Shown: in pieces, positions 19,640 to 52,239 of the stretch
Numbering within the stretch: the first letter of the stretch is position 1
How the letters are laid out: each line of letters begins with the position of its first letter
IMG/VR virus record: IMGVR_UViG_3300030107_005947
Coordinates: 1 to 54,470 of that record
DNA from: a virus
Lineage: Duplodnaviria > Caudoviricetes
Length of the DNA: 54,470 nt
Strand: one strand, 5' to 3'
Program-made: the position numbers and the translations under genes
The notes under the pieces: model-generated
What the model was told of the DNA's origin: nothing
The model's input: the letters and a program-made list of their open reading frames with translations, nothing else
Databases searched by the model: none

Positions 19640-20350
19640 TTAATAAACATTCCAAAATAATACATCGTTACTTTTTTTCAACTGCATACATAATTCCAAT
19701 GCTTTTAAATCATAATTAGGCATACACTGAAAAGGTGCTTTGTATTTACTACTATAATCAAAACTTTTAGGATATTTAATTAAACGTAATCGTTCATGTT
19801 CATAATTAAAATCTTTACCTACTATAATACCAGTTACTTGTGCATTATTACTACCTGATAATATCCCTTTGACTAAAGTTCCACTACCTACTGCACAAAA
19901 AATTTCAGCAGGTTCTTTTCCTAATTCCTTAATTATAGTTTTCATGGTATTTGCTATGCTATTTATAGCAATTGGGTGATTAGCACCAAATTCTAAATAC
20001 TGATAATTACTATTTACATTTACAAAGTCTTTGGCACGTTTTTGTACTACGTTTAAATACCCAGGAGTAATTTCTACTACTTCACTACCTAACTCACTAG
20101 CTAATAAAGTGTTTGGGTGTTTTTCCTTGCGTTTGGCACAAAATATGATGCTTTTTTTACCAACGTTTTTTGCTACCTCACTTAAGGCTATTTGAAAACC
20201 TCCATATACTGGACTTGCGTATACATAACCATTTTTATTTTCATTTAAAAGTAAAGGTAAAAAACGGCTTTTAGTACCACCAATTAATAAATCATCTCGT
20301 AATACTGTTATACCTTCATAACTTTCCAAAGTAATTGTATTATCCGACAT
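19640..20350 (-). CDS. PLP-dependent enzyme, fold type II (ACC deaminase/cysteine synthase-like)
   Basis: VLRDDLLIGGTKSR Schiff-base Lys motif, CAVGSGT phosphate loop, YDLKA. Confidence 0.8.
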   Translation of the reverse strand: MSDNTITLESYEGITVLRDDLLIGGTKSRFLPLLLNENKNGYVYASPVYGGFQIALSEVAKNVGKKSIIFCAKRKEKHPNTLLASELGSEVVEITPGYLNVVQKRAKDFVNVNSNYQYLEFGANHPIAINSIANTMKTIIKELGKEPAEIFCAVGSGTLVKGILSGSNNAQVTGIIVGKDFNYEHERLRLIKYPKSFDYSSKYKAPFQCMPNYDLKALELCMQLKKSNDVLFWNVY

Positions 20351-20358
20351 TACAGCAA

Positions 20359-22296
20359 CTACTCCTTTCCCGTTAACTGTAAATCCTTCTTGGTAGCCCA
20401 TGACGGACTACATATTTCAACATCTACTTCTAATGGTATACCTAAACTATTGTTTTGTAAAATTTCTTTAATTACTAAAGGTAAAGTTTCCATTTCCGAA
20501 TTATGTATTTCACATATAATTTCATCATGTACTTGTAATAAAATACTGCTTTTAGTATCGGAAAGTCGCTTTTCTACTTCTATCATTCGTTCGGATAATA
20601 AATCTGCTGATGTTCCTTGAACTAAATAGTTGACGCCTTTATAAGCAAAGTCGGAATCTATTTGATATCGTCTGCCATAACGATTTTTAATCCAACCTCG
20701 TTTCACAACTATCCTTACTACATGATCAAAGAAATCTCTACTACCTTTTAAACCTTCAAAATATTTCTTTTTGTATAAAGACGCTTCTTTAACTGTTGTA
20801 CTTAATTGATGTGCCAGATTCTTTGCTCCCATACCATATATTGTTCCAAAAGTTATACCTTTTGCCATTTGACGATAATATTTAAATTGTTCATCTTCTT
20901 CAGTAACATTAAAGGCTAATTTTGCAGCTTCGCCATGAAAATCCACATCATTTTTGTTTAGAAGTGCATCTATAACATCATTCCTAAAATATGACATAAA
21001 AACTCTAACTTCCATTTGGCTATAGTCAAAAGAAACCAAAGTATGTTCTGGTCTTGCCACAAATAAACGCCTAATTGATATTTGATTACTATCATTTTCA
21101 TCAAAATACTCATCACCAACAAAAAACCACGAATCTATCAACTCATTAGAAACATTAACAGCTATGTTTTCTCTTTTTTGTGCTGACATTTTATTTCTAA
21201 TATCTTCCCTATCTTTATCTGTTATATTTTCACTAGATAAACGAAAGCTATTTCTTGGTATATTTTGCAAATTAGGTTCTCTTGATGACAATCTACCTGT
21301 TGCAGTACCCCAATTACAAAAATTTGTTCTCATTAGAGTTGTATCTATATAAGGTACTACATATGTTGAGTTTAATTTTGCAAAACCTCTATATTGTTTA
21401 ACTAATCCAGCCAATTTGTGATCTATAGTCATTAAAGCTGCTTCATTCCAAGAAGGATTTCCTTTTTCAGTTTTTACAGGAGATTCTATTCCAAGATATT
21501 CAAACACTTTTCCGAGTTGTTGTGTACTTAAAATATCAAATTCTTGCTTTGCAATATCATAAATTTCTGCTTGTAATTCAAGTAATTTATTATCAATCAA
21601 TTTTTTACACTTTATAGCATAGCCTTGATCAATAGTAATTCCACGCTTTTCTATTTTATGCAAAACTTCCGTTAATTCACATTGCAGTTCATAAATTTCA
21701 TTCTGCTGTGTGTTTTCTATTTGCTGAAGTGCATCTTCATAAACTCTAGCTGTTAACTCCACATCTTTTTTACAGTATTCTCCTAAAAATGTTGCTGGAG
21801 AAACAGAAAAATCCTTATGCCATTTATAGGACTTTAATGCTTTTTTTGTATCAATATCATATTGTACGGACTCTTTTCCGTACCATCTGGAACCAGTAGG
21901 AGTTAATCCAAAATCCCTAACTGAAGAAGATTCAACCAATCTTACCATAACAATGACATCAATTAGCTTTTTATCTTCTGAAATAAAACCATCATTTTCA
22001 AGAAAACGCAAATCAAATTTCAAATTGTAACCAATAACTGCTTTGCTTTGGTTTAATACTTCCATTAATTCTGGTAACTTATCGTAATCAAGGTTTTCTC
22101 CTTGATGATGCCTAAAGGGGAAATAGAAAGATTTTCCTTTAAAGGTAGCTTCTCCAACACCAATACCACATGATTGATTTATATCAGAATTTAAGCCGTT
22201 TGTTTCTACGTCAACAACAATTTTTTCAGTTCTTGCAATAATGTCCCTAACGTGCTGTAAATTTTCTCCGAAAGTTGCGTTTGTTACAACTGACAT
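20359..22296 (-). CDS. polA: family A DNA polymerase with 3'-5' exonuclease
   Basis: DVETNG ExoI, YNLKFD ExoII, YCKKD ExoIII, TGRLSS..PNLQNIP, DYSQMEVR, RQMAKGITFGTIYG, QVHDE. Confidence 0.95.
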   Translation of the reverse strand: MSVVTNATFGENLQHVRDIIARTEKIVVDVETNGLNSDINQSCGIGVGEATFKGKSFYFPFRHHQGENLDYDKLPELMEVLNQSKAVIGYNLKFDLRFLENDGFISEDKKLIDVIVMVRLVESSSVRDFGLTPTGSRWYGKESVQYDIDTKKALKSYKWHKDFSVSPATFLGEYCKKDVELTARVYEDALQQIENTQQNEIYELQCELTEVLHKIEKRGITIDQGYAIKCKKLIDNKLLELQAEIYDIAKQEFDILSTQQLGKVFEYLGIESPVKTEKGNPSWNEAALMTIDHKLAGLVKQYRGFAKLNSTYVVPYIDTTLMRTNFCNWGTATGRLSSREPNLQNIPRNSFRLSSENITDKDREDIRNKMSAQKRENIAVNVSNELIDSWFFVGDEYFDENDSNQISIRRLFVARPEHTLVSFDYSQMEVRVFMSYFRNDVIDALLNKNDVDFHGEAAKLAFNVTEEDEQFKYYRQMAKGITFGTIYGMGAKNLAHQLSTTVKEASLYKKKYFEGLKGSRDFFDHVVRIVVKRGWIKNRYGRRYQIDSDFAYKGVNYLVQGTSADLLSERMIEVEKRLSDTKSSILLQVHDEIICEIHNSEMETLPLVIKEILQNNSLGIPLEVDVEICSPSWATKKDLQLTGKE

Positions 22297-45960: not shown

Positions 45961-46146
45961 ATGATCCAGTCCATAGAAGAAGACCAAGTAATAGAACTTT
46001 TCAAAAAATATTACGCAAAAGTTCCAGATCTTATTTCGGAATTAGGAATGGACGTGTATGGTACAGACGCTAGAGCTGATTTGGCAAAAACATTTTTACT
46101 GGCACACTGCATAAACGAAAACACGAAAGCTGTTCGTGATTACTAA
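45961..46146 (+). CDS. hypothetical protein
   Basis: GGAGG RBS; TAATG coupling to nadA. Confidence 0.65.
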   Translation: MIQSIEEDQVIELFKKYYAKVPDLISELGMDVYGTDARADLAKTFLLAHCINENTKAVRDY

Positions 46147-47330
46147 TGGTAAATAAATTACCAACAACGGAATTAGAACAATCTGCTTTTTGTCAAGAAG
46201 ATGCTTTAATTACCAAACCTCTAATTGAAGAATTAAAAATACCTGTTAACTGGCAAGAAGTACCTCAAGAATATCTTCACTTAGCTCCTGAAATTATTTC
46301 GGACAGAATTTTTACTGCAAAAAGAAAACTATCTACAGCAGTAACTATTTTAGGACACCATTACCAAAGAGAAGAAGTAATTCAGTTCGCTGATACTATT
46401 GGAGATTCTTATTTATTATCCGTACAAGCATCTAAACAACAAGCAAAATATATCATTTTTTGTGGTGTACAGTTTATGGCTGAAACTGCTGATATAGTTT
46501 GTCAAGATTGGCAAAAAGTTATACTACCAAATTTAGCAGCTGGGTGTTCTATGGCTGACATGGCTCCAACCGAGCAAGTTCAAGATGCTTGGTTAGAAAT
46601 TTTGACTAATGTTGGATCGTGGTTTGATGTTATACCTGTAGCATATATGAACTCCACTGCTGAGATTAAATCACTATGTGGTAGAAATAAAGGAATTATA
46701 TGTACCAGTTCAAATGTAACCAAGGCGTTTAAATGGGCTTTAGATAGAGGAAACAAAATATTTTTTCTACCCGATCAACACCTTGGAAAAAACACAGCTA
46801 AAAAATGGGATATTCCAGATAACGAAATAATTATTTGGGATCCATATAAACCTTTAGGTGGTAACACCTTAGAGGATTTAACAAGAGCAACAGTAATATT
46901 ATGGAAAGCCCATTGTTCGGTACATACCAGATTCACAACAAAACAAATAGAGTCAGCCAGACAAAAATTCCCTAAGGTTAAAGTTATTGTTCACCCAGAA
47001 TGTACTTCTGAAGTTGTCGATATGGCTGATATGAATGGTAGTACAGAAATGATTATAAATAGAGTTAACAATAGTAAATCAGGTAGTATTTTTGCAATTG
47101 GTACAGAAATAAATCTTGTTAATAGGTTAGCTAAGAATAATCCAGATAAAACAATATTTTGCTTGGACTCTATTGTGTGTCCTTGTTCTACGATGTATAG
47201 GATACACCCTGCTTATTTATTGTGGGTATTAGAATCGATTATTTATAAAGATCCTGTTAATGTTATTGAAGTTTCAGAAGAAACTAAATTTTACGCAAAA
47301 CGGGCAATTAATAGAATGATGGTGTTATAA
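46146..47330 (+). CDS. nadA: quinolinate synthase A
   Basis: ILGHHYQ, GDS, FCGVQFMAE, AGCSMADMA, YMNS, CTSSN, FLPDQHLGKN, HCSVH, VHPEC, GST, GTE, CSTM; three Fe-S cysteines present. Confidence 0.95.
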   Translation: MVNKLPTTELEQSAFCQEDALITKPLIEELKIPVNWQEVPQEYLHLAPEIISDRIFTAKRKLSTAVTILGHHYQREEVIQFADTIGDSYLLSVQASKQQAKYIIFCGVQFMAETADIVCQDWQKVILPNLAAGCSMADMAPTEQVQDAWLEILTNVGSWFDVIPVAYMNSTAEIKSLCGRNKGIICTSSNVTKAFKWALDRGNKIFFLPDQHLGKNTAKKWDIPDNEIIIWDPYKPLGGNTLEDLTRATVILWKAHCSVHTRFTTKQIESARQKFPKVKVIVHPECTSEVVDMADMNGSTEMIINRVNNSKSGSIFAIGTEINLVNRLAKNNPDKTIFCLDSIVCPCSTMYRIHPAYLLWVLESIIYKDPVNVIEVSEETKFYAKRAINRMMVL

Positions 47331-47636: not shown

Positions 47637-47665
47637 TTGACAAACAAAATTCCTTAATATACTAT
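47637..47665 (+). promoter_or_regulatory. sigma70-type promoter
   Basis: aaggTTGACA-N17-TACTAT. Confidence 0.75.
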
Positions 47666-47699
47666 GGCTTTCATAATATTTAATTATAGGAGTGTAAAT

Positions 47700-47846
47700 A
47701 TGGTAGAAATAGATAATGAAGAAAGACTTAGTTTTTGTTGTGAAGCTCCTCCATTAGGTGGAATAGAGGAATACGGATTTTGTGGACATTGTGAAGAACA
47801 CACAGAGTTCCTTACCGAACAAGAATTTGAAGAACGTATGAAATAA
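47700..47846 (+). CDS. small zinc-binding protein
   Basis: AGGAG RBS before MVEID; SFCCEAP..CGHCEEH. Confidence 0.7.
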   Translation: MVEIDNEERLSFCCEAPPLGGIEEYGFCGHCEEHTEFLTEQEFEERMK

Positions 47847-48173: not shown

Positions 48174-48365
48174 TTGTATAGTAGAAGAAAAGAAGTTTTT
48201 AAGGACTACATAAGAGTGGACCTAACCAATTCAGAAGATGCAGAACTAGTACTAGAATATATTCGTTCGATGAAATCTAACTATAAAGGTAGAGTCGAGA
48301 TGAGAATTCAACAAGCTAGAAATTCCCAGATCTGGAGAGAACAATCAGAAATTGTGAGCGGTTAG
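48174..48365 (+). CDS. hypothetical protein
   Basis: GAGG RBS, TTG start. Confidence 0.55.
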   Translation: MYSRRKEVFKDYIRVDLTNSEDAELVLEYIRSMKSNYKGRVEMRIQQARNSQIWREQSEIVSG

Positions 48366-48589
48366 TGGCAGCCCAAAAAGGAGTTCCTGTTATCAATAGG
48401 AAGAAAACTATTCTTCCTGTAACTCTTCCTGAAGAATCTTATGGAGTTTGTCTAAAGCACAATAGGTGTGGCAACCATGAACCACAACTTTTGGGAAACG
48501 GCTTATGTCTTGACTGCTGGGATTTGAAACAATACCAATTCGATCGCACCAGCAAAAAAGCAAAAGCTCGTGTTCGAGAAAAGTGGTAA
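48365..48589 (+). CDS. small Cys-containing protein
   Basis: C..HNRC..CLDC; coupled to upstream stop. Confidence 0.55.
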   Translation: MAAQKGVPVINRKKTILPVTLPEESYGVCLKHNRCGNHEPQLLGNGLCLDCWDLKQYQFDRTSKKAKARVREKW

Positions 48590-48610: not shown

Positions 48611-48778
48611 ATGATACAGGATTTAGAGAATACTTTTTCTATAGTTATAGAAAAAAATAAAAGCGGTTTGTTATGTCAATTTTGCGATGGTGTTGCAATA
48701 GTTGAACAGACACCTTATATTGAAGGTGCGGCATACTGCGATTGTGATTTTATCCCCCCAACATTTATCCAAGAATAA
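48611..48778 (+). CDS. 55-aa Cys-containing protein (not in ORF track)
   Basis: AGGAG RBS; MIQDLEN..CQFC..YCDC..FIQE. Confidence 0.55.
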   Translation: MIQDLENTFSIVIEKNKSGLLCQFCDGVAIVEQTPYIEGAAYCDCDFIPPTFIQE

Positions 48779-48920
48779 TACCGACTTGTAATGTTTTATA
48801 TAATGTACTATATTTAATTTATTATAGGACTTTTTTGTTTAACTTTATTTAAAGTCCAGATAATTTTTGTCTGGCATGAAAAAAGAGTGAACTGAATAAA
48901 CGCTACAGTCCTATAGTTAA

Positions 48921-48971
48921 TTGTTGAGCTAATTGTGAAGGCTTATGTAGTTTTCATAATTAGCTCAATAA
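48921..48971 (+). promoter_or_regulatory. 23-bp RNA hairpin just upstream of the glycosyltransferase RBS
   Basis: 48921-43 pairs fully with 48949-71, including four G-U wobbles; 5-nt loop. Confidence 0.7.
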
Positions 48972-48988
48972 AAATATAGGAGCTTTAG

Positions 48989-49843
48989 ATGATAGAACGA
49001 ATATATATACCGACAGTTAGACGTACAGACAAACAAATTACCTATGATAATCTTCCTGATGAATTAAAAAAGAAAGTTGTTATGGTAATTGAGCCAAACG
49101 AACGCCATCTTTATAATTATGATTGTGAGTATCTGGAAATACCTGAAAAATTAGTAGGCACATGGACACAACTGGCTGAAACCAGATTGTTTATTCATAA
49201 ACACGCAGGTAACATTAAATACTGCGTTTCTGATGACGATATAGTTATAGAAAGAAGAAATGCAAAATATTGGACTGGAAAATCCAACATGGAAAAAAGT
49301 AGGCAACGTGCCAATAATAGCGATATACTAGAAATGTTTTCAAAAATTGATACTTGGTTAGATGAACCTAATATCGGAATTATCGGACTTAGTGATGCAG
49401 GTATACCTCCACAAAGTGTTGAATATGTAGATACTGTTGGTGTATATTGTATGGTTTTTATTGATGGTACAATGTTATCAAAAATTATAGATGATATAGA
49501 TATAACATCAATTAGAATTGCTGAAGATGTTTTGTTTTTGTTTGAATGTCTATCAAGAGGCATTAATACCCGCAGAGTAACTGAGTGGATATACGATAAC
49601 AAAAGTCTTTATCAAAAAGATTTACAAAACAGTAGGGAAGTGTGGACTGGTATGTTTAAAGATGGAGAAATGCCACCAAATCATTATCAACATAATTTAC
49701 ATATTGAAGTTATGCAATATATTCAAAGTAAATATCCAGAGTGTATTGATATTTACGAAAAAAACGGAAAGTTTAAATTTCGAAAAAAATGGAAAAAGGC
49801 ATATAAAAGTAGGTTAGTTGAATCTCAAAAGCAATTATTATAA
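48989..49843 (+). CDS. GT-A fold glycosyltransferase, TAGT/GREB1-like (divergent copy)
   Basis: IYIPTVRR, ETRLFI, VSDDDI (DxD-type), IAEDV. Confidence 0.75.
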   Translation: MIERIYIPTVRRTDKQITYDNLPDELKKKVVMVIEPNERHLYNYDCEYLEIPEKLVGTWTQLAETRLFIHKHAGNIKYCVSDDDIVIERRNAKYWTGKSNMEKSRQRANNSDILEMFSKIDTWLDEPNIGIIGLSDAGIPPQSVEYVDTVGVYCMVFIDGTMLSKIIDDIDITSIRIAEDVLFLFECLSRGINTRRVTEWIYDNKSLYQKDLQNSREVWTGMFKDGEMPPNHYQHNLHIEVMQYIQSKYPECIDIYEKNGKFKFRKKWKKAYKSRLVESQKQLL

Positions 49844-49855
49844 GGAAAATTATTT

Positions 49856-50128
49856 ATGAATCAAGAAGATAATCAAGAACAATTGGAATTATTTGAAATG
49901 AAGGCTGATCCTAAGGAATGGGAAGTTGAGTGGCAAGGTATGCCAGAATTTATTCAGGAAAAACGTGATCCTTTTCACATGATCCAAATTCGTTTTGCAA
50001 GTGAAAAAGATTATAGGGAATTTGCTGAACTTATTGAACAAAACCTTACTAAAAAAACTCTAAGCATATGGTATCCAAAACTACAGATAGGTGCCAATGC
50101 TCATTTAAGGTATGCTGATGAATCCTAA
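49856..50128 (+). CDS. glycosyltransferase-associated small protein 1
   Basis: EWQGMPEFIQE..IRF..FAELIEQNLT.KT.SIWYPK; N-terminal QLELF. Confidence 0.75.
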   Translation: MNQEDNQEQLELFEMKADPKEWEVEWQGMPEFIQEKRDPFHMIQIRFASEKDYREFAELIEQNLTKKTLSIWYPKLQIGANAHLRYADES

Positions 50129-51077
50129 ATATCCCATATATATTATTTCCAAAGGACGTTGGGATTTGCCAAAAGGTACTCACGCACATTTAACCAGAAT
50201 GAATGTTGAATTTTTTATTGTCGTTGAAGAACAAGAATATGAACAATACGCAAAACACACCGACAAAGAAAAATTATTAATTTTGCCTAAAAAGTATTTA
50301 GAAGATTATGACACGTTTTGGGAAAAAGATATTAATCAATCTACTGGTCCAGGGGCTGCAAGAAATTTTTGTTGGGATCATGCGATTAGTTTAAATGCTT
50401 CCAGACATTGGGTCATGGACGATAATATTTATGGCTTTTTTAGATTTAATAGAAATAGTATTTACTTAGTTGAAACTGGTGCTATGTTTCGAGCAATGGA
50501 AGATTTTGTAGATCGATACGAAAACGTGGCTATTGCTGGACCAAACTACCAAAAATTTATTGTTACAAATGAAAAATATTTACCTTTTAGAAAAAACATT
50601 AGGATTTATTCGTGTTTATTAATTAAGAATGATTTACCATTTAGATGGCGAGGTAGATATAATGAGGATACTGATTTATGTCTTAATGCTTTAAAATTAA
50701 ATTATTGTACTATTCAGTTCAACGCCTTTTTGCAAGAAAAAATCACAACCCAAAGAATATCTGGTGGTAATACTGCTGAATTTTATGCTCAAGAAGGAAC
50801 ATATAATAAATCAAAAATGCTTGTCGATATGCACCCTGATGTTACTTCCCTTGTCTGGAGATTTGATAGATGGCACCACGAAGTTTATTATGAAGTTTTT
50901 AAAAAAATATCACTTATTAGAAAAAAAGATATTGAAGTTTTGGATAGAATAAATAATTACGGAATGACCTTAGTTGATAGTGAAACAAATGAGGTTATAG
51001 GACCTAGTTTAGAAAAATCACCACACAAACAAAATATAATTGAATTTAAAGAAAGTTTTCAAAAGTCGTTATTTTAA
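50118..51077 (+). CDS. GT-A fold glycosyltransferase, TAGT/GREB1-like
   Basis: YPIYIISKGR, ARNFCWDH, HWVMDDNI, RIYSCLLI, GRYNEDTD, GGNT. Confidence 0.85.
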   Translation: MNPKYPIYIISKGRWDLPKGTHAHLTRMNVEFFIVVEEQEYEQYAKHTDKEKLLILPKKYLEDYDTFWEKDINQSTGPGAARNFCWDHAISLNASRHWVMDDNIYGFFRFNRNSIYLVETGAMFRAMEDFVDRYENVAIAGPNYQKFIVTNEKYLPFRKNIRIYSCLLIKNDLPFRWRGRYNEDTDLCLNALKLNYCTIQFNAFLQEKITTQRISGGNTAEFYAQEGTYNKSKMLVDMHPDVTSLVWRFDRWHHEVYYEVFKKISLIRKKDIEVLDRINNYGMTLVDSETNEVIGPSLEKSPHKQNIIEFKESFQKSLF

Positions 51078-51095
51078 AAGTATAGGAGTATTGCT

Positions 51096-51338
51096 ATGAG
51101 TGAAGATGGAATTTCTCAGCTTACTTGGTGGGAAGAAGAATGGCAAGATATGCCTGAGTTTATAAGCGAGGATATCCAACCTTATCAAAAAATTGTTATA
51201 CGTTTTGAAACCAAAGAACATTTTGATGAATTTGCAAAATTGATTGGACAAAATCTAACTTCAAGAACAAAAAGTATTTGGTATCCTAAATTAATTCACA
51301 AAGATTGGCAAAAGTTGAGGTATAGAGATGAATCCTAA
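51096..51338 (+). CDS. glycosyltransferase-associated small protein 2
   Basis: paralog of 49856..50128 (EWQDMPEFISE..SIWYPK); AGGAG RBS. Confidence 0.75.
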   Translation: MSEDGISQLTWWEEEWQDMPEFISEDIQPYQKIVIRFETKEHFDEFAKLIGQNLTSRTKSIWYPKLIHKDWQKLRYRDES

Positions 51339-52239
51339 ATACCCTATTTATATTGTATCCAAAGGTCGTTGGGAAAGTCGAATAACTAGTAAATCCCTAG
51401 AACTTATAAATGTGCCTTATTATATTGCTGTAGAACCACAAGAATACGAGCAGTACGCAAGTGTTATTGACCCTAAAAAAATACTGGTATTGCCTTTTAG
51501 CAACCACGGATTAGGACCAACACTTGCCCGTAATTGGTGTTGGGAACATTCTATTTCTTTAGGTGCAAAACGTCACTGGGTAATGGACGATAATATTTCG
51601 CATTTTTACAGGTTAAATAAAAATGTTCGAGTACAAGTAAGTTCTGGCACAATATTTCGTGCTGCTGAAGACTTTGTTGATAGATATGAAAATGTTCCAT
51701 TAGCTGGATTACAATATCGTTTTTTTGCTGTACCAGATGGTAAATTACCTGCATACGTCAAAAACACCAGAATATATTCATGTCTACTTATAGAAAACTC
51801 TACTCCTTATAGATGGCGTGGTAAATATAATGAAGATACGGATATATCTTTGAGGATATTAAAAGACGGATTATGTACAATTCAATTTAACGCTTTCCTC
51901 CAAGGCAAAGTGGCAACACAAACTGTTTCTGGTGGTAATTCCATGGAATTTTACGATCACGAAGGTACCTTAAATAAATCCCAGTATTTAGTAGATTTGC
52001 ACCCAGACGTTTCTAGTCTAGTTATGAGATATAATAGATGGCATCATTACGTTGATTATTCTCCGTTTAAAAAAAATAAATTAATTAAAAGAAAAGATTT
52101 AATAATTCCCGAAGGCGTTGACAATTACGGAATGATTTTAGTAGATGAAGAAGCAGTTCCAGAAATTAAAAAACCTGTTGATACTAATAAGTTTTTTCCT
52201 GATTCTGATATTGATTTTCAATACTCTCTTTTTTCTTGA
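51328..52239 (+). CDS. GT-A fold glycosyltransferase, TAGT/GREB1-like
   Basis: close paralog of 50118..51077 with the same motifs. Confidence 0.85.
   Translation: MNPKYPIYIVSKGRWESRITSKSLELINVPYYIAVEPQEYEQYASVIDPKKILVLPFSNHGLGPTLARNWCWEHSISLGAKRHWVMDDNISHFYRLNKNVRVQVSSGTIFRAAEDFVDRYENVPLAGLQYRFFAVPDGKLPAYVKNTRIYSCLLIENSTPYRWRGKYNEDTDISLRILKDGLCTIQFNAFLQGKVATQTVSGGNSMEFYDHEGTLNKSQYLVDLHPDVSSLVMRYNRWHHYVDYSPFKKNKLIKRKDLIIPEGVDNYGMILVDEEAVPEIKKPVDTNKFFPDSDIDFQYSLFS

Follow-up and report, generated by a model that had tools for sequence, protein, structure and literature searches.

This analysis focused on a five-gene operon in the viral record IMGVR_UViG_3300030107_005947, which represents an uncultured marine phage; the window comprises the whole IMG/VR record (54,470 nt), and its completeness is estimated at about 71%, with about 29% of the genome missing. 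The operon specifies three glycosyltransferases (GT1, GT2 and GT3) and two small proteins, in the order GT1-small1-GT2-small2-GT3. With a probability of about one in two, these genes encode a clamp-tethered, multi-enzyme array for DNA glycosylation. It is hypothesized that each small protein is an adaptor consisting of an N-terminal peptide of the clamp-binding type (QLELF in small1), an acidic variable linker and a conserved domain of about 65 residues. The conserved domain would dock onto a TAGT-type GT-A enzyme, and the adaptor would deliver this transferase to the sliding clamp carried on newly replicated DNA. Phage DNA would then be glycosylated after its replication, with host nucleotide-sugars as donors, and three different transferases could provide for more than one sugar, linkage or site. 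We infer both contacts (small protein with glycosyltransferase, tail with clamp), and likewise DNA as the substrate and any order of action among the three glycosyltransferases (GTs).

The five genes form one tight operon on the plus strand, at 48989-52239, and all five open reading frames (ORFs) are present. Their positions, together with those of the motifs discussed below and of the leader, are as follows (aa, amino acids):

48780-48988 (no strand assigned): leader 5' of GT1, 210 nt without an ORF, with nested inverted repeats
48989-49843 (+): GT1, 284 aa, divergent TAGT-type GT-A glycosyltransferase; DDD motif at 49232-49240
49856-50128 (+): small1, 90 aa, putative adaptor; N-terminal tail, then the W..W..MPEF domain (residues 22-90)
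49880-49894 (+): QLELF (residues 9-13 of small1, in the tail), resembling beta-clamp-binding peptides
50118-51077 (+): GT2, 319 aa, TAGT glycosyltransferase; DDN at 50418-50426
51096-51338 (+): small2, 80 aa, putative adaptor; conserved domain at residues 12-80
51117-51131 (+): SQLTWW of the small2 tail, a doubtful clamp motif
51328-52239 (+): GT3, 303 aa, TAGT glycosyltransferase; DDN at 51586-51594

The gaps between the genes, in order, are 12, -11, 18 and -11 nt, and a Shine-Dalgarno-like AGGAG, AAGG or GAGG lies 7-10 nt 5' of every start. GT2 has an alternative start, an in-frame ATG at 50112 that would add two residues.

GT2 and GT3 score above the gathering cut-off (27.5 bits) of the Pfam family TAGT, PF20691, with 140.8 bits (7.4e-41) and 153.3 bits (1.1e-44), respectively, and GT1 scores just below it with 25.9 bits. 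All three match phrog_842 (GT1 1.3e-11, GT2 2.1e-50, GT3 2.2e-51). GT1 has 263 homologs at E <= 0.001, of which the best 120 are 58-76% identical, besides the window's own 100% record, and most of these 120 carry the PF20691 label. Its ESM Atlas model (predicted template modelling score, pTM, 0.84) aligns with TAGT/GREB1 clusters at template modelling (TM) scores of 0.85-0.90, and GT1 is predicted to be a divergent marine TAGT with a TAGT-like structure. An earlier, sequence-only reading of this DNA had assigned all three enzymes to the TAGT/GREB1-type GT-A group, and the family scores and the GT1 model uphold that assignment. The active-site motif R...DD[D/N]...ED is present in all three, R...DDD...ED being described for phage GT-A enzymes that act on DNA (Pyle et al., bioRxiv 10.1101/2023.12.21.572611). 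GT2 retains all 42 invariant columns of a 47-sequence alignment (A2), and R68, D87, D88, G127, E169, D170 and H225 (GT3 numbering) are invariant in a six-way alignment of GT1, GT2 and GT3 with the ggt protein of phage T6 and the enzymes of phages Aeh1 and Kuja. Judged by these residues, GT1, GT2 and GT3 look catalytically intact.

GT3 shares 47-57% identity with the GT domains of Aeh1, phiAS5, 65, PTm1, POP12, Kuja and henriette, and GT3-type proteins occur in 25 of 50,697 deposited phage records, from Aeromonas, Vibrio, Tenacibaculum, Pectobacterium, Paraglaciecola and Nonlabens phages. The same 50,697 records hold no relative of GT1-type proteins at E <= 1e-5. Profile searches of solved structures gave no match for the GT3 or GT1 clades, and none of the five operon proteins is covered by an NCBIfam model.

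Small1 and small2 are paralogs (57% identity over 69 aa, E 8e-25), as are GT2 and GT3 (56% identity over 290 aa, E 1e-119). BLASTP finds no similarity between GT1 and GT3 (E 2.8), and a profile-profile comparison of GT1 with the GT3 clade (hhalign) gives a weak match (E 0.002, probability 13.6%). Both small-GT overlaps consist of the same 11 nt, ATGAATCCTAA, which is found exactly twice in the 54,470-nt window (50118-50128 and 51328-51338) and reached two or more copies in 0 of 100 shuffles of it. The ORF list and the 11-mer count thus confirm the gene order and the identical junctions described in the sequence-only reading, and its recognition of small1 and small2 as paralogs also holds. It had further called GT2 and GT3 close paralogs and had seen in the operon a duplicated two-gene unit. 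Paralogs they are, but at 56% identity 'close' overstates the relationship, and the duplicated unit does not survive phylogenetic comparison. In a FastTree phylogeny of 47 GT3-type sequences (LG+gamma, midpoint root), GT2 and GT3 are not sisters and fall in different clades, their common ancestor spanning 27 of the 47 tips. The overlap, moreover, is found across the family: among 46 distinct small-GT junctions of related loci, an 11-nt ATG overlap is the commonest type (18 junctions), with ATGAATCCTAA itself in eight, and its length arises because ...DES-stop is dual-coded over MNPK... The overlap is therefore ancestral and no sign of a recent duplication. A recent tandem duplication was rejected in view of the different clades of GT2 and GT3 and the family-wide overlap, and from the same two observations it follows that the window carries two old lineages of one cassette, joined by a GT1-type gene.

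The small proteins belong to a large family that has no Pfam, PHROG-function, NCBIfam, PDB or Atlas name. Small1 is included in the family alignment (A1), in which W, MPE, F, F, L, Q, W and P are invariant. A word search with small2 gave 38 homologs, and a profile search of 1.84 billion representatives gave 3,218 clusters (50% identity) at E <= 0.001 and 2,271 at E <= 1e-10. Solved structures matched the small profile at chance level only (best 8.4e-4, a collagen adhesin, no matched stretch passing alone), and an ESM Atlas search with small2 returned viral hypothetical clusters only. No description of the adaptor was found in the literature searched, although the supplements of PMC13216743 and of Pyle et al. 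could list such ORFs; in the main text of Pyle et al., 'N-terminal' and 'accessory' are absent and 'clamp' appears only in a neighbour-gene list.

The context of this family is uniform. In the viral loci taken from the best 80 of 501 confirmed hits, the small gene lies directly 5' of a TAGT gene on the same strand in all 80, with fused forms in three (L032, L037, L043). The GT starts 130-1,050 nt 3' of the small gene in 17 of the 80, and where the gap holds an ORF, it specifies an FkbM or class I methyltransferase, a GT-B-like protein or a 354-aa product without a Pfam match (L053/L055). A search of 185,579 species genomes gave 12 loci, all with the same arrangement and nearly all of them contigs of metagenome-assembled genomes (MAGs), and the family is almost confined to viruses. 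All six cultured phage types examined carry the small domain, fused to the GT in Aeh1, PTm1, POP12, Vibrio 1.076.O and Kuja, the last of which has the fused small-GT twice in tandem, and split in henriette 12B8. As regards a two-part enzyme, small and GT do occur as one polypeptide in other phages, and in many of these the conserved domain of about 65 residues is the N-terminal domain of the GT. The view that the small proteins are conserved partners of the GTs, translationally coupled or fused, is well borne out by these counts (80/80, 12/12 and 6/6 loci).

A second set of 63 loci, seeded with GT1, contains GT1-type, small and GT3-type together in 42 and GT1 alone in 16, several of these being truncated; small is present in 42 of the 45 loci with a GT3-type gene, and the three exceptions end at the locus edge. 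Gene orders include small-GT1-GT3, small-GT1-GT1'-GT3 and GT3-small-GT1, as well as GT1 followed by a protein of 505-515 aa that combines two small domains with a GT3-type domain. In one locus (L147) small is fused C-terminally to a GT1-type enzyme, in P0194 it is fused to another GT-A family, Gly_transf_sug, and a fused small domain was seen in 7 of 30 longer representatives scanned. Since the small domain accompanies GT3-type, GT1-type and Gly_transf_sug enzymes, the adaptor is not tied to one enzyme type. This does not support the earlier idea that each elongating GT needs a dedicated partner, and cognate co-variation was not seen: co-evolution of cognate small-GT pairs was rejected in a crude test of 63 pairs (Spearman rho -0.11, p 0.41). 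In complete phages of 32-38 kb, small plus a GT3-type gene is the only GT module, and this GT type must therefore also be able to act first.

Two further observations concern cultured phages. In henriette 12B8 (NC_021073.1 about 20960-22215; L091 7591-8846) the small ORF and the GT3-type gene are both unannotated in RefSeq, and lie inside a 1.27-kb gap between annotated coding sequences, beside clamp-loader genes. Aeh1 (L084 7098-7310) and POP12 (L093 8831-9028) each carry a stand-alone ORF of 66-71 aa just 3' of the fused GT, which matches the small hidden Markov model (HMM) weakly (E 5.5e-6 and 3.4e-7, respectively) and may be a remnant or a second adaptor.

Most adaptor tails contain a short hydrophobic-acidic motif 10-25 residues before the W..W..MPEF core. 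In small1 this is QLELF, which precedes the acidic linker and fits the QL[S/D]LF-type consensus of beta-clamp-binding peptides, in which the central residue is the most variable (PMC3716654), a resemblance that suggests binding. Either [LMIF]F[DEGSAQNK] or L..F[LIFMAY] occurs in 44 of 75 distinct locus tails, against rates of 14% in shuffles (maximum 24%) and of 10% in windows drawn at random from other ORFs. The result was replicated on 50%-identity representatives, with the motif in 89 of 135 tails and in 15% of shuffles (maximum 24%), and the pattern Q[LMIV].[LMIF][FLM] was found in 27 of these 135 tails compared with 1% in shuffles (maximum 4%), including literal QLSLF, QLTLF, QESLF and QIPLF. 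The form of the motif also varies with the replication genes nearby: [ST]L..F[L] is present in 8 of 16 motif-bearing tails from loci with T4-type replication genes, versus 4 of 28 in other loci, and it resembles the clamp-binding ends of T6 gp43 (SLDFLFG) and gp55 (SLDFLYEAND) (PMC2988020). The complete genome G015 encodes a beta-clamp homolog of its own, about 1 kb from the TAGT gene. SQLTWW of small2 is conserved in P0001 and P0002, which are 94-95% identical, and two small-domain proteins have ParB_N-like N-termini, weak and below the Pfam cut-off. On the strength of these tail motifs, the small adaptor probably hooks the GTs to the DNA sliding clamp.

Related modules carry additional genes, namely FkbM or class I methyltransferases, GT-B enzymes and a second GT1-type gene, and this supply of further GTs and sugar-type methyltransferases fits multi-step glycan building. 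It is consistent with one part of the sequence-only reading, the sequential building of a di- or trisaccharide, but the other parts of that scheme, a hydroxymethylated acceptor base and dedicated partners, are not supported. In 24 loci a heptose-1-phosphate adenylyltransferase-like gene lies directly 5' of the GT1-type gene, which hints at an ADP-heptose-type donor; no such gene is found in the window. One of these neighbours (L130 2795-3244) encodes a 149-aa cytidylyltransferase-like protein (phrog_7878, 4.9e-32), and the other 23 loci are likewise. The wider neighbourhoods of related modules consist of replication, recombination and nucleotide-metabolism genes of lytic-type phages. In the complete genome G004 (L101 4333-4758) a GNAT acetyltransferase gene abuts the TAGT gene, and this genome also encodes a Glyco_transf_34 enzyme, a GP88-family protein and an ART-PolyVal giant protein.

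Several observations weigh against a clamp-tethered array acting on DNA. The small2 tail contains only SQLTWW, which falls outside the QL[S/D]LF type, about a third of all tails are without a clamp motif, and none was found in the fused proteins of Aeh1, POP12, PTm1 and Kuja. The shuffles also overstate independence, because the patterns were picked after inspection of the tails and the family members are related. No clamp gene was found in the window, the gp45 search having had no positive control; for a phage with a PolA-type polymerase and no clamp gene found, the host clamp would have to serve. When predicted alone, small2 gives a poor model that is mostly coil (mean predicted local distance difference test score, pLDDT, 67.5). 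The small HMM has no match in T6 (positions 1-50,000) at E <= 10, and T6 ggt is without a small domain or partner. There is no direct HMM similarity between T6 ggt and GT1-3 either, so that function can be transferred from T6 only by way of the Pfam/PHROG profile. Lastly, GREB1, an animal cytoplasmic member of the TAGT family, O-GlcNAcylates a protein (PMC7968844).

The search for an acceptor-making enzyme adds to these difficulties. Neither Tet_JBP nor ThyA-family proteins were found in the incomplete window, the Tet_JBP search having no positive control, in line with the earlier remark that no dioxygenase or hydroxymethylase is visible there. Among 29 carrier records a ThyA-family protein is present in one (a 675-kb 'provirus') and Tet_JBP in none, again with no positive control for the latter. 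Four complete carrier genomes (G006, G025, G004 and G015, comprising a 38-kb siphovirus, a 32-kb P22-like phage, and 61-kb and 69-kb phages; G002, with 57 ORFs, was left out) were scanned across every ORF of at least 90 aa, and TET/JBP or ThyA-type enzymes were found in 0 of 4. One of the four, that with the beta-clamp homolog about 1 kb from the GT, carries ThyX. PTm1 has a second, divergent ThyA-like ORF, and in Kuja a single ThyA-like gene and the tandem fused small-GT genes (products of 452 and 446 aa; L094 7581-10269) lie about 7 kb apart. Kuja is a phage of the Ackermannviridae, and relatives of this family are known for hydroxymethyl-uracil-derived bases. Aeh1 has a single ordinary thymidylate synthase and no extra ThyA-type gene, and both Aeh1 and 65 lack genes 42 and 56 (Petrov et al., PMC2993671).

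With no known acceptor-making enzyme, DNA glycosylation would call for an acceptor chemistry or an oxidase of a so far unknown kind. The hydroxymethyl-base route that the sequence-only reading had put forward has thus lost ground, there being no enzyme for it in the window or in any of the four complete carriers scanned; this route is therefore unlikely to be general, but could still apply to this incomplete record. Five complete genomes compared share with the window only the small+GT cassette, which indicates that the cassette moves and presumably works on its own.

It could be speculated that the acceptor is a protein, although this is unlikely. In such a GREB1-like scheme the adaptor would take the GT to the clamp or replisome, where a replication protein would be glycosylated to take over or block host replication, or some other phage or host protein would be modified. 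A clamp-binding peptide is equally suited to reaching clamp-bound proteins, and the protein substrate of GREB1 (PMC7968844) provides a precedent within the TAGT family. The cassette does not need a base-modifying partner, and its spread through unrelated phages resembles that of an autonomous gene for host takeover or counter-defence. However, the presence of three to four GTs plus sugar-type methyltransferases per module suggests a sizeable glycan on an abundant acceptor, the characterised phage members of the fold act on DNA, and the neighbourhoods examined contain no candidate acceptor protein that co-varies with the module.

Also to be considered is the classical hydroxymethyl-pyrimidine pathway, in which a hydroxymethylase or TET/JBP enzyme would be encoded in the missing part of the genome and GT1-3 would build a di- or trisaccharide on 5-hydroxymethylcytosine (5hmC) or 5-hydroxymethyluracil (5hmU). 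The record is only about 71% complete, and a GT1 identical to that of the window (P0039) lies on a 63.8-kb contig. The TAGT enzyme of T6 elongates glucosyl-hydroxymethylcytosine (glucosyl-hmC), mono-, di- and trisaccharides have been reconstituted on 5hmC from metavirome clusters (Pyle et al.), and the second ThyA-like ORF of PTm1 and the ThyA-like gene of Kuja are also in its favour. What makes this pathway quite unlikely is that the cassette occurs in complete genomes without any such enzyme (0/4 scanned), that a ThyA-family gene is found in 1 of 29 carrier records, and that Aeh1 and 65 are without gene 42; as the sole thing common to the window and the five complete genomes, the cassette presumably works alone. 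An envelope glycan, whereby a cytoplasmic precursor of lipopolysaccharide, teichoic acid or capsule would be modified in a TarP-like manner to give superinfection exclusion, is very improbable, since the structural resemblance of phage GT-A DNA transferases to TarP (Pyle et al.) and the heptose-1-phosphate adenylyltransferase-like gene beside GT1-type in 24 loci are set against a family found almost exclusively in viruses (185,579 species genomes yielded only 12 loci, mostly on MAG contigs), a position among the replication genes of lytic-type phages, an adaptor peptide of the clamp type that has no role in envelope synthesis, and no flippase or membrane component seen in the module.

The clamp-tethered DNA glycosylation array can also be put in a bolder form, which is doubtful but worth stating. 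Adaptor-linked TAGTs on the clamp would add sugars to DNA without a hydroxymethyl or hydroxy precursor, the acceptor being a canonical base or the product of an unrecognised enzyme; the cassette would be self-sufficient in thousands of phage lineages, and the three-enzyme array would build an oligosaccharide. If true, precursor-free sugar attachment would represent a new DNA glycosylation chemistry. Solitary TAGT homologs have been reported in 288 of 753 GT-bearing phage genomes (PMC13216743), and for such orphan GTs the adaptor family with its clamp-type peptide offers a concrete, testable mechanism in which DNA is indicated as the substrate. Confirmation would bring to light a hidden oxidase or else a new acceptor chemistry on DNA, point to a general means of tethering DNA-modifying enzymes to the replisome, and provide new DNA-labelling enzymes. 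Cultured carriers that are not hazardous exist, in the form of Aeromonas phage Aeh1 and Vibrio splendidus phage henriette 12B8.

The leader at 48780-48988 is probably the start of the GT operon. Its nested inverted repeats span 48816-48981 and include 19-nt arms at 48921-48939 and 48953-48971 that are 89% complementary; they could serve as an operator or form an RNA structure. Promoter-like matches in the leader are not commoner than in shuffled sequence, and neither Rfam families nor tRNAs were found in the window. Minus-strand genes of the window specify head, portal, terminase and tail proteins, a PolA-type polymerase, primase, DnaB-type helicase, ribonucleotide reductase and a UvsX-like recombinase. 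The plus-strand block starts near 45.9 kb and opens with a full-length gene for NadA, quinolinate synthase, at 46146-47330 (+) (PF02445, 324 bits; TIGR00550, 310 bits versus a cut-off of 263), relatives of which were found in only 9 of 50,697 phage records, most of these nine being metagenomic fragments without annotation. NadA was rejected as a member of the module, as it does not recur beside it in the 143 related loci clustered. Between NadA and GT1 are three small ORFs of 55-74 aa (47664-47846, 48365-48589 and 48611-48778, all +) with paired Cys motifs resembling zinc ribbons and no family match for any of them. A pyridoxal phosphate (PLP)-dependent, PALP-family protein (threonine-dehydratase/synthase-like, 253 aa) at 19640-20401 (-) overlaps the start of the PolA-type polymerase gene, and is an odd neighbour for a replication gene. 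The ORF at the 3' end of the window has no relative among the viral and metagenome contigs searched.

Several known systems can be compared with this module. The TAGT member of T2/T6 adds a second glucose to glucosyl-hmC DNA (PMC13216743, PMC13390438). T6 ggt resembles the window GTs in family (PF20691/phrog_842), in its R, DD and ED residues and in its position among replication genes, and is a second-step DNA sugar transferase; it differs in its length (261 aa) and in lying 53 nt 3' of gene 42, which encodes deoxycytidine monophosphate (dCMP) hydroxymethylase. The window, unlike T6, has no gene 42, alpha-GT or beta-GT. A second system is that of the 5mYOX/ThyS-associated GT clusters of metaviromes, with which mono-, di- and trisaccharides on 5hmC were reconstituted (Pyle, Lund, O'Toole, Saleh, bioRxiv 2023). 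Like the module as proposed here, these have serial GT-A/GT-B enzymes that act on phage DNA, the R...DDD...ED motif, and methyltransferase or sugar-modifying neighbours, but they depend on a C5-methyltransferase plus 5mYOX, or on ThyS. In that study, about 65% of GT contigs had no neighbour of this kind, and these were treated as 'less likely' DNA enzymes and left aside. Stepwise synthesis of an oligosaccharide on phage DNA, by at least two transferases, is also seen with arabinosyl-5-hydroxycytosine, which carries 1-3 arabinoses in RB69, NP and others (PMC13390438). Those systems require arabinose-precursor genes and a 5-hydroxy-dCMP synthase of the ThyA family, and the present analysis found none of these; PMC13326640 makes no mention of TAGT. 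GREB1 shares the domain family of the window GTs, as judged from Atlas cluster names. No adaptor of the small type is known for GREB1.

With regard to recruitment, T4 alpha-GT binds the gp45 sliding clamp (Sommer et al. 2004, a finding that PMC13216743 cites and confirms), and is, as proposed here, a DNA sugar transferase brought to the replisome clamp. It has a GT-B fold and binds the clamp itself, whereas in the present module a separate or fused adaptor would carry the peptide and presumably make the contact. A further parallel is 5mYOX176, a phage thymine dioxygenase that requires ParB176 (O'Toole et al., PNAS 2026, PMC13229309). The enzyme class and the partner fold are different from those of the window module, but in both a small, separately encoded protein accompanies a phage enzyme that modifies DNA or is proposed to do so; ParB176 is a cognate activator related to a DNA-clamp protein.

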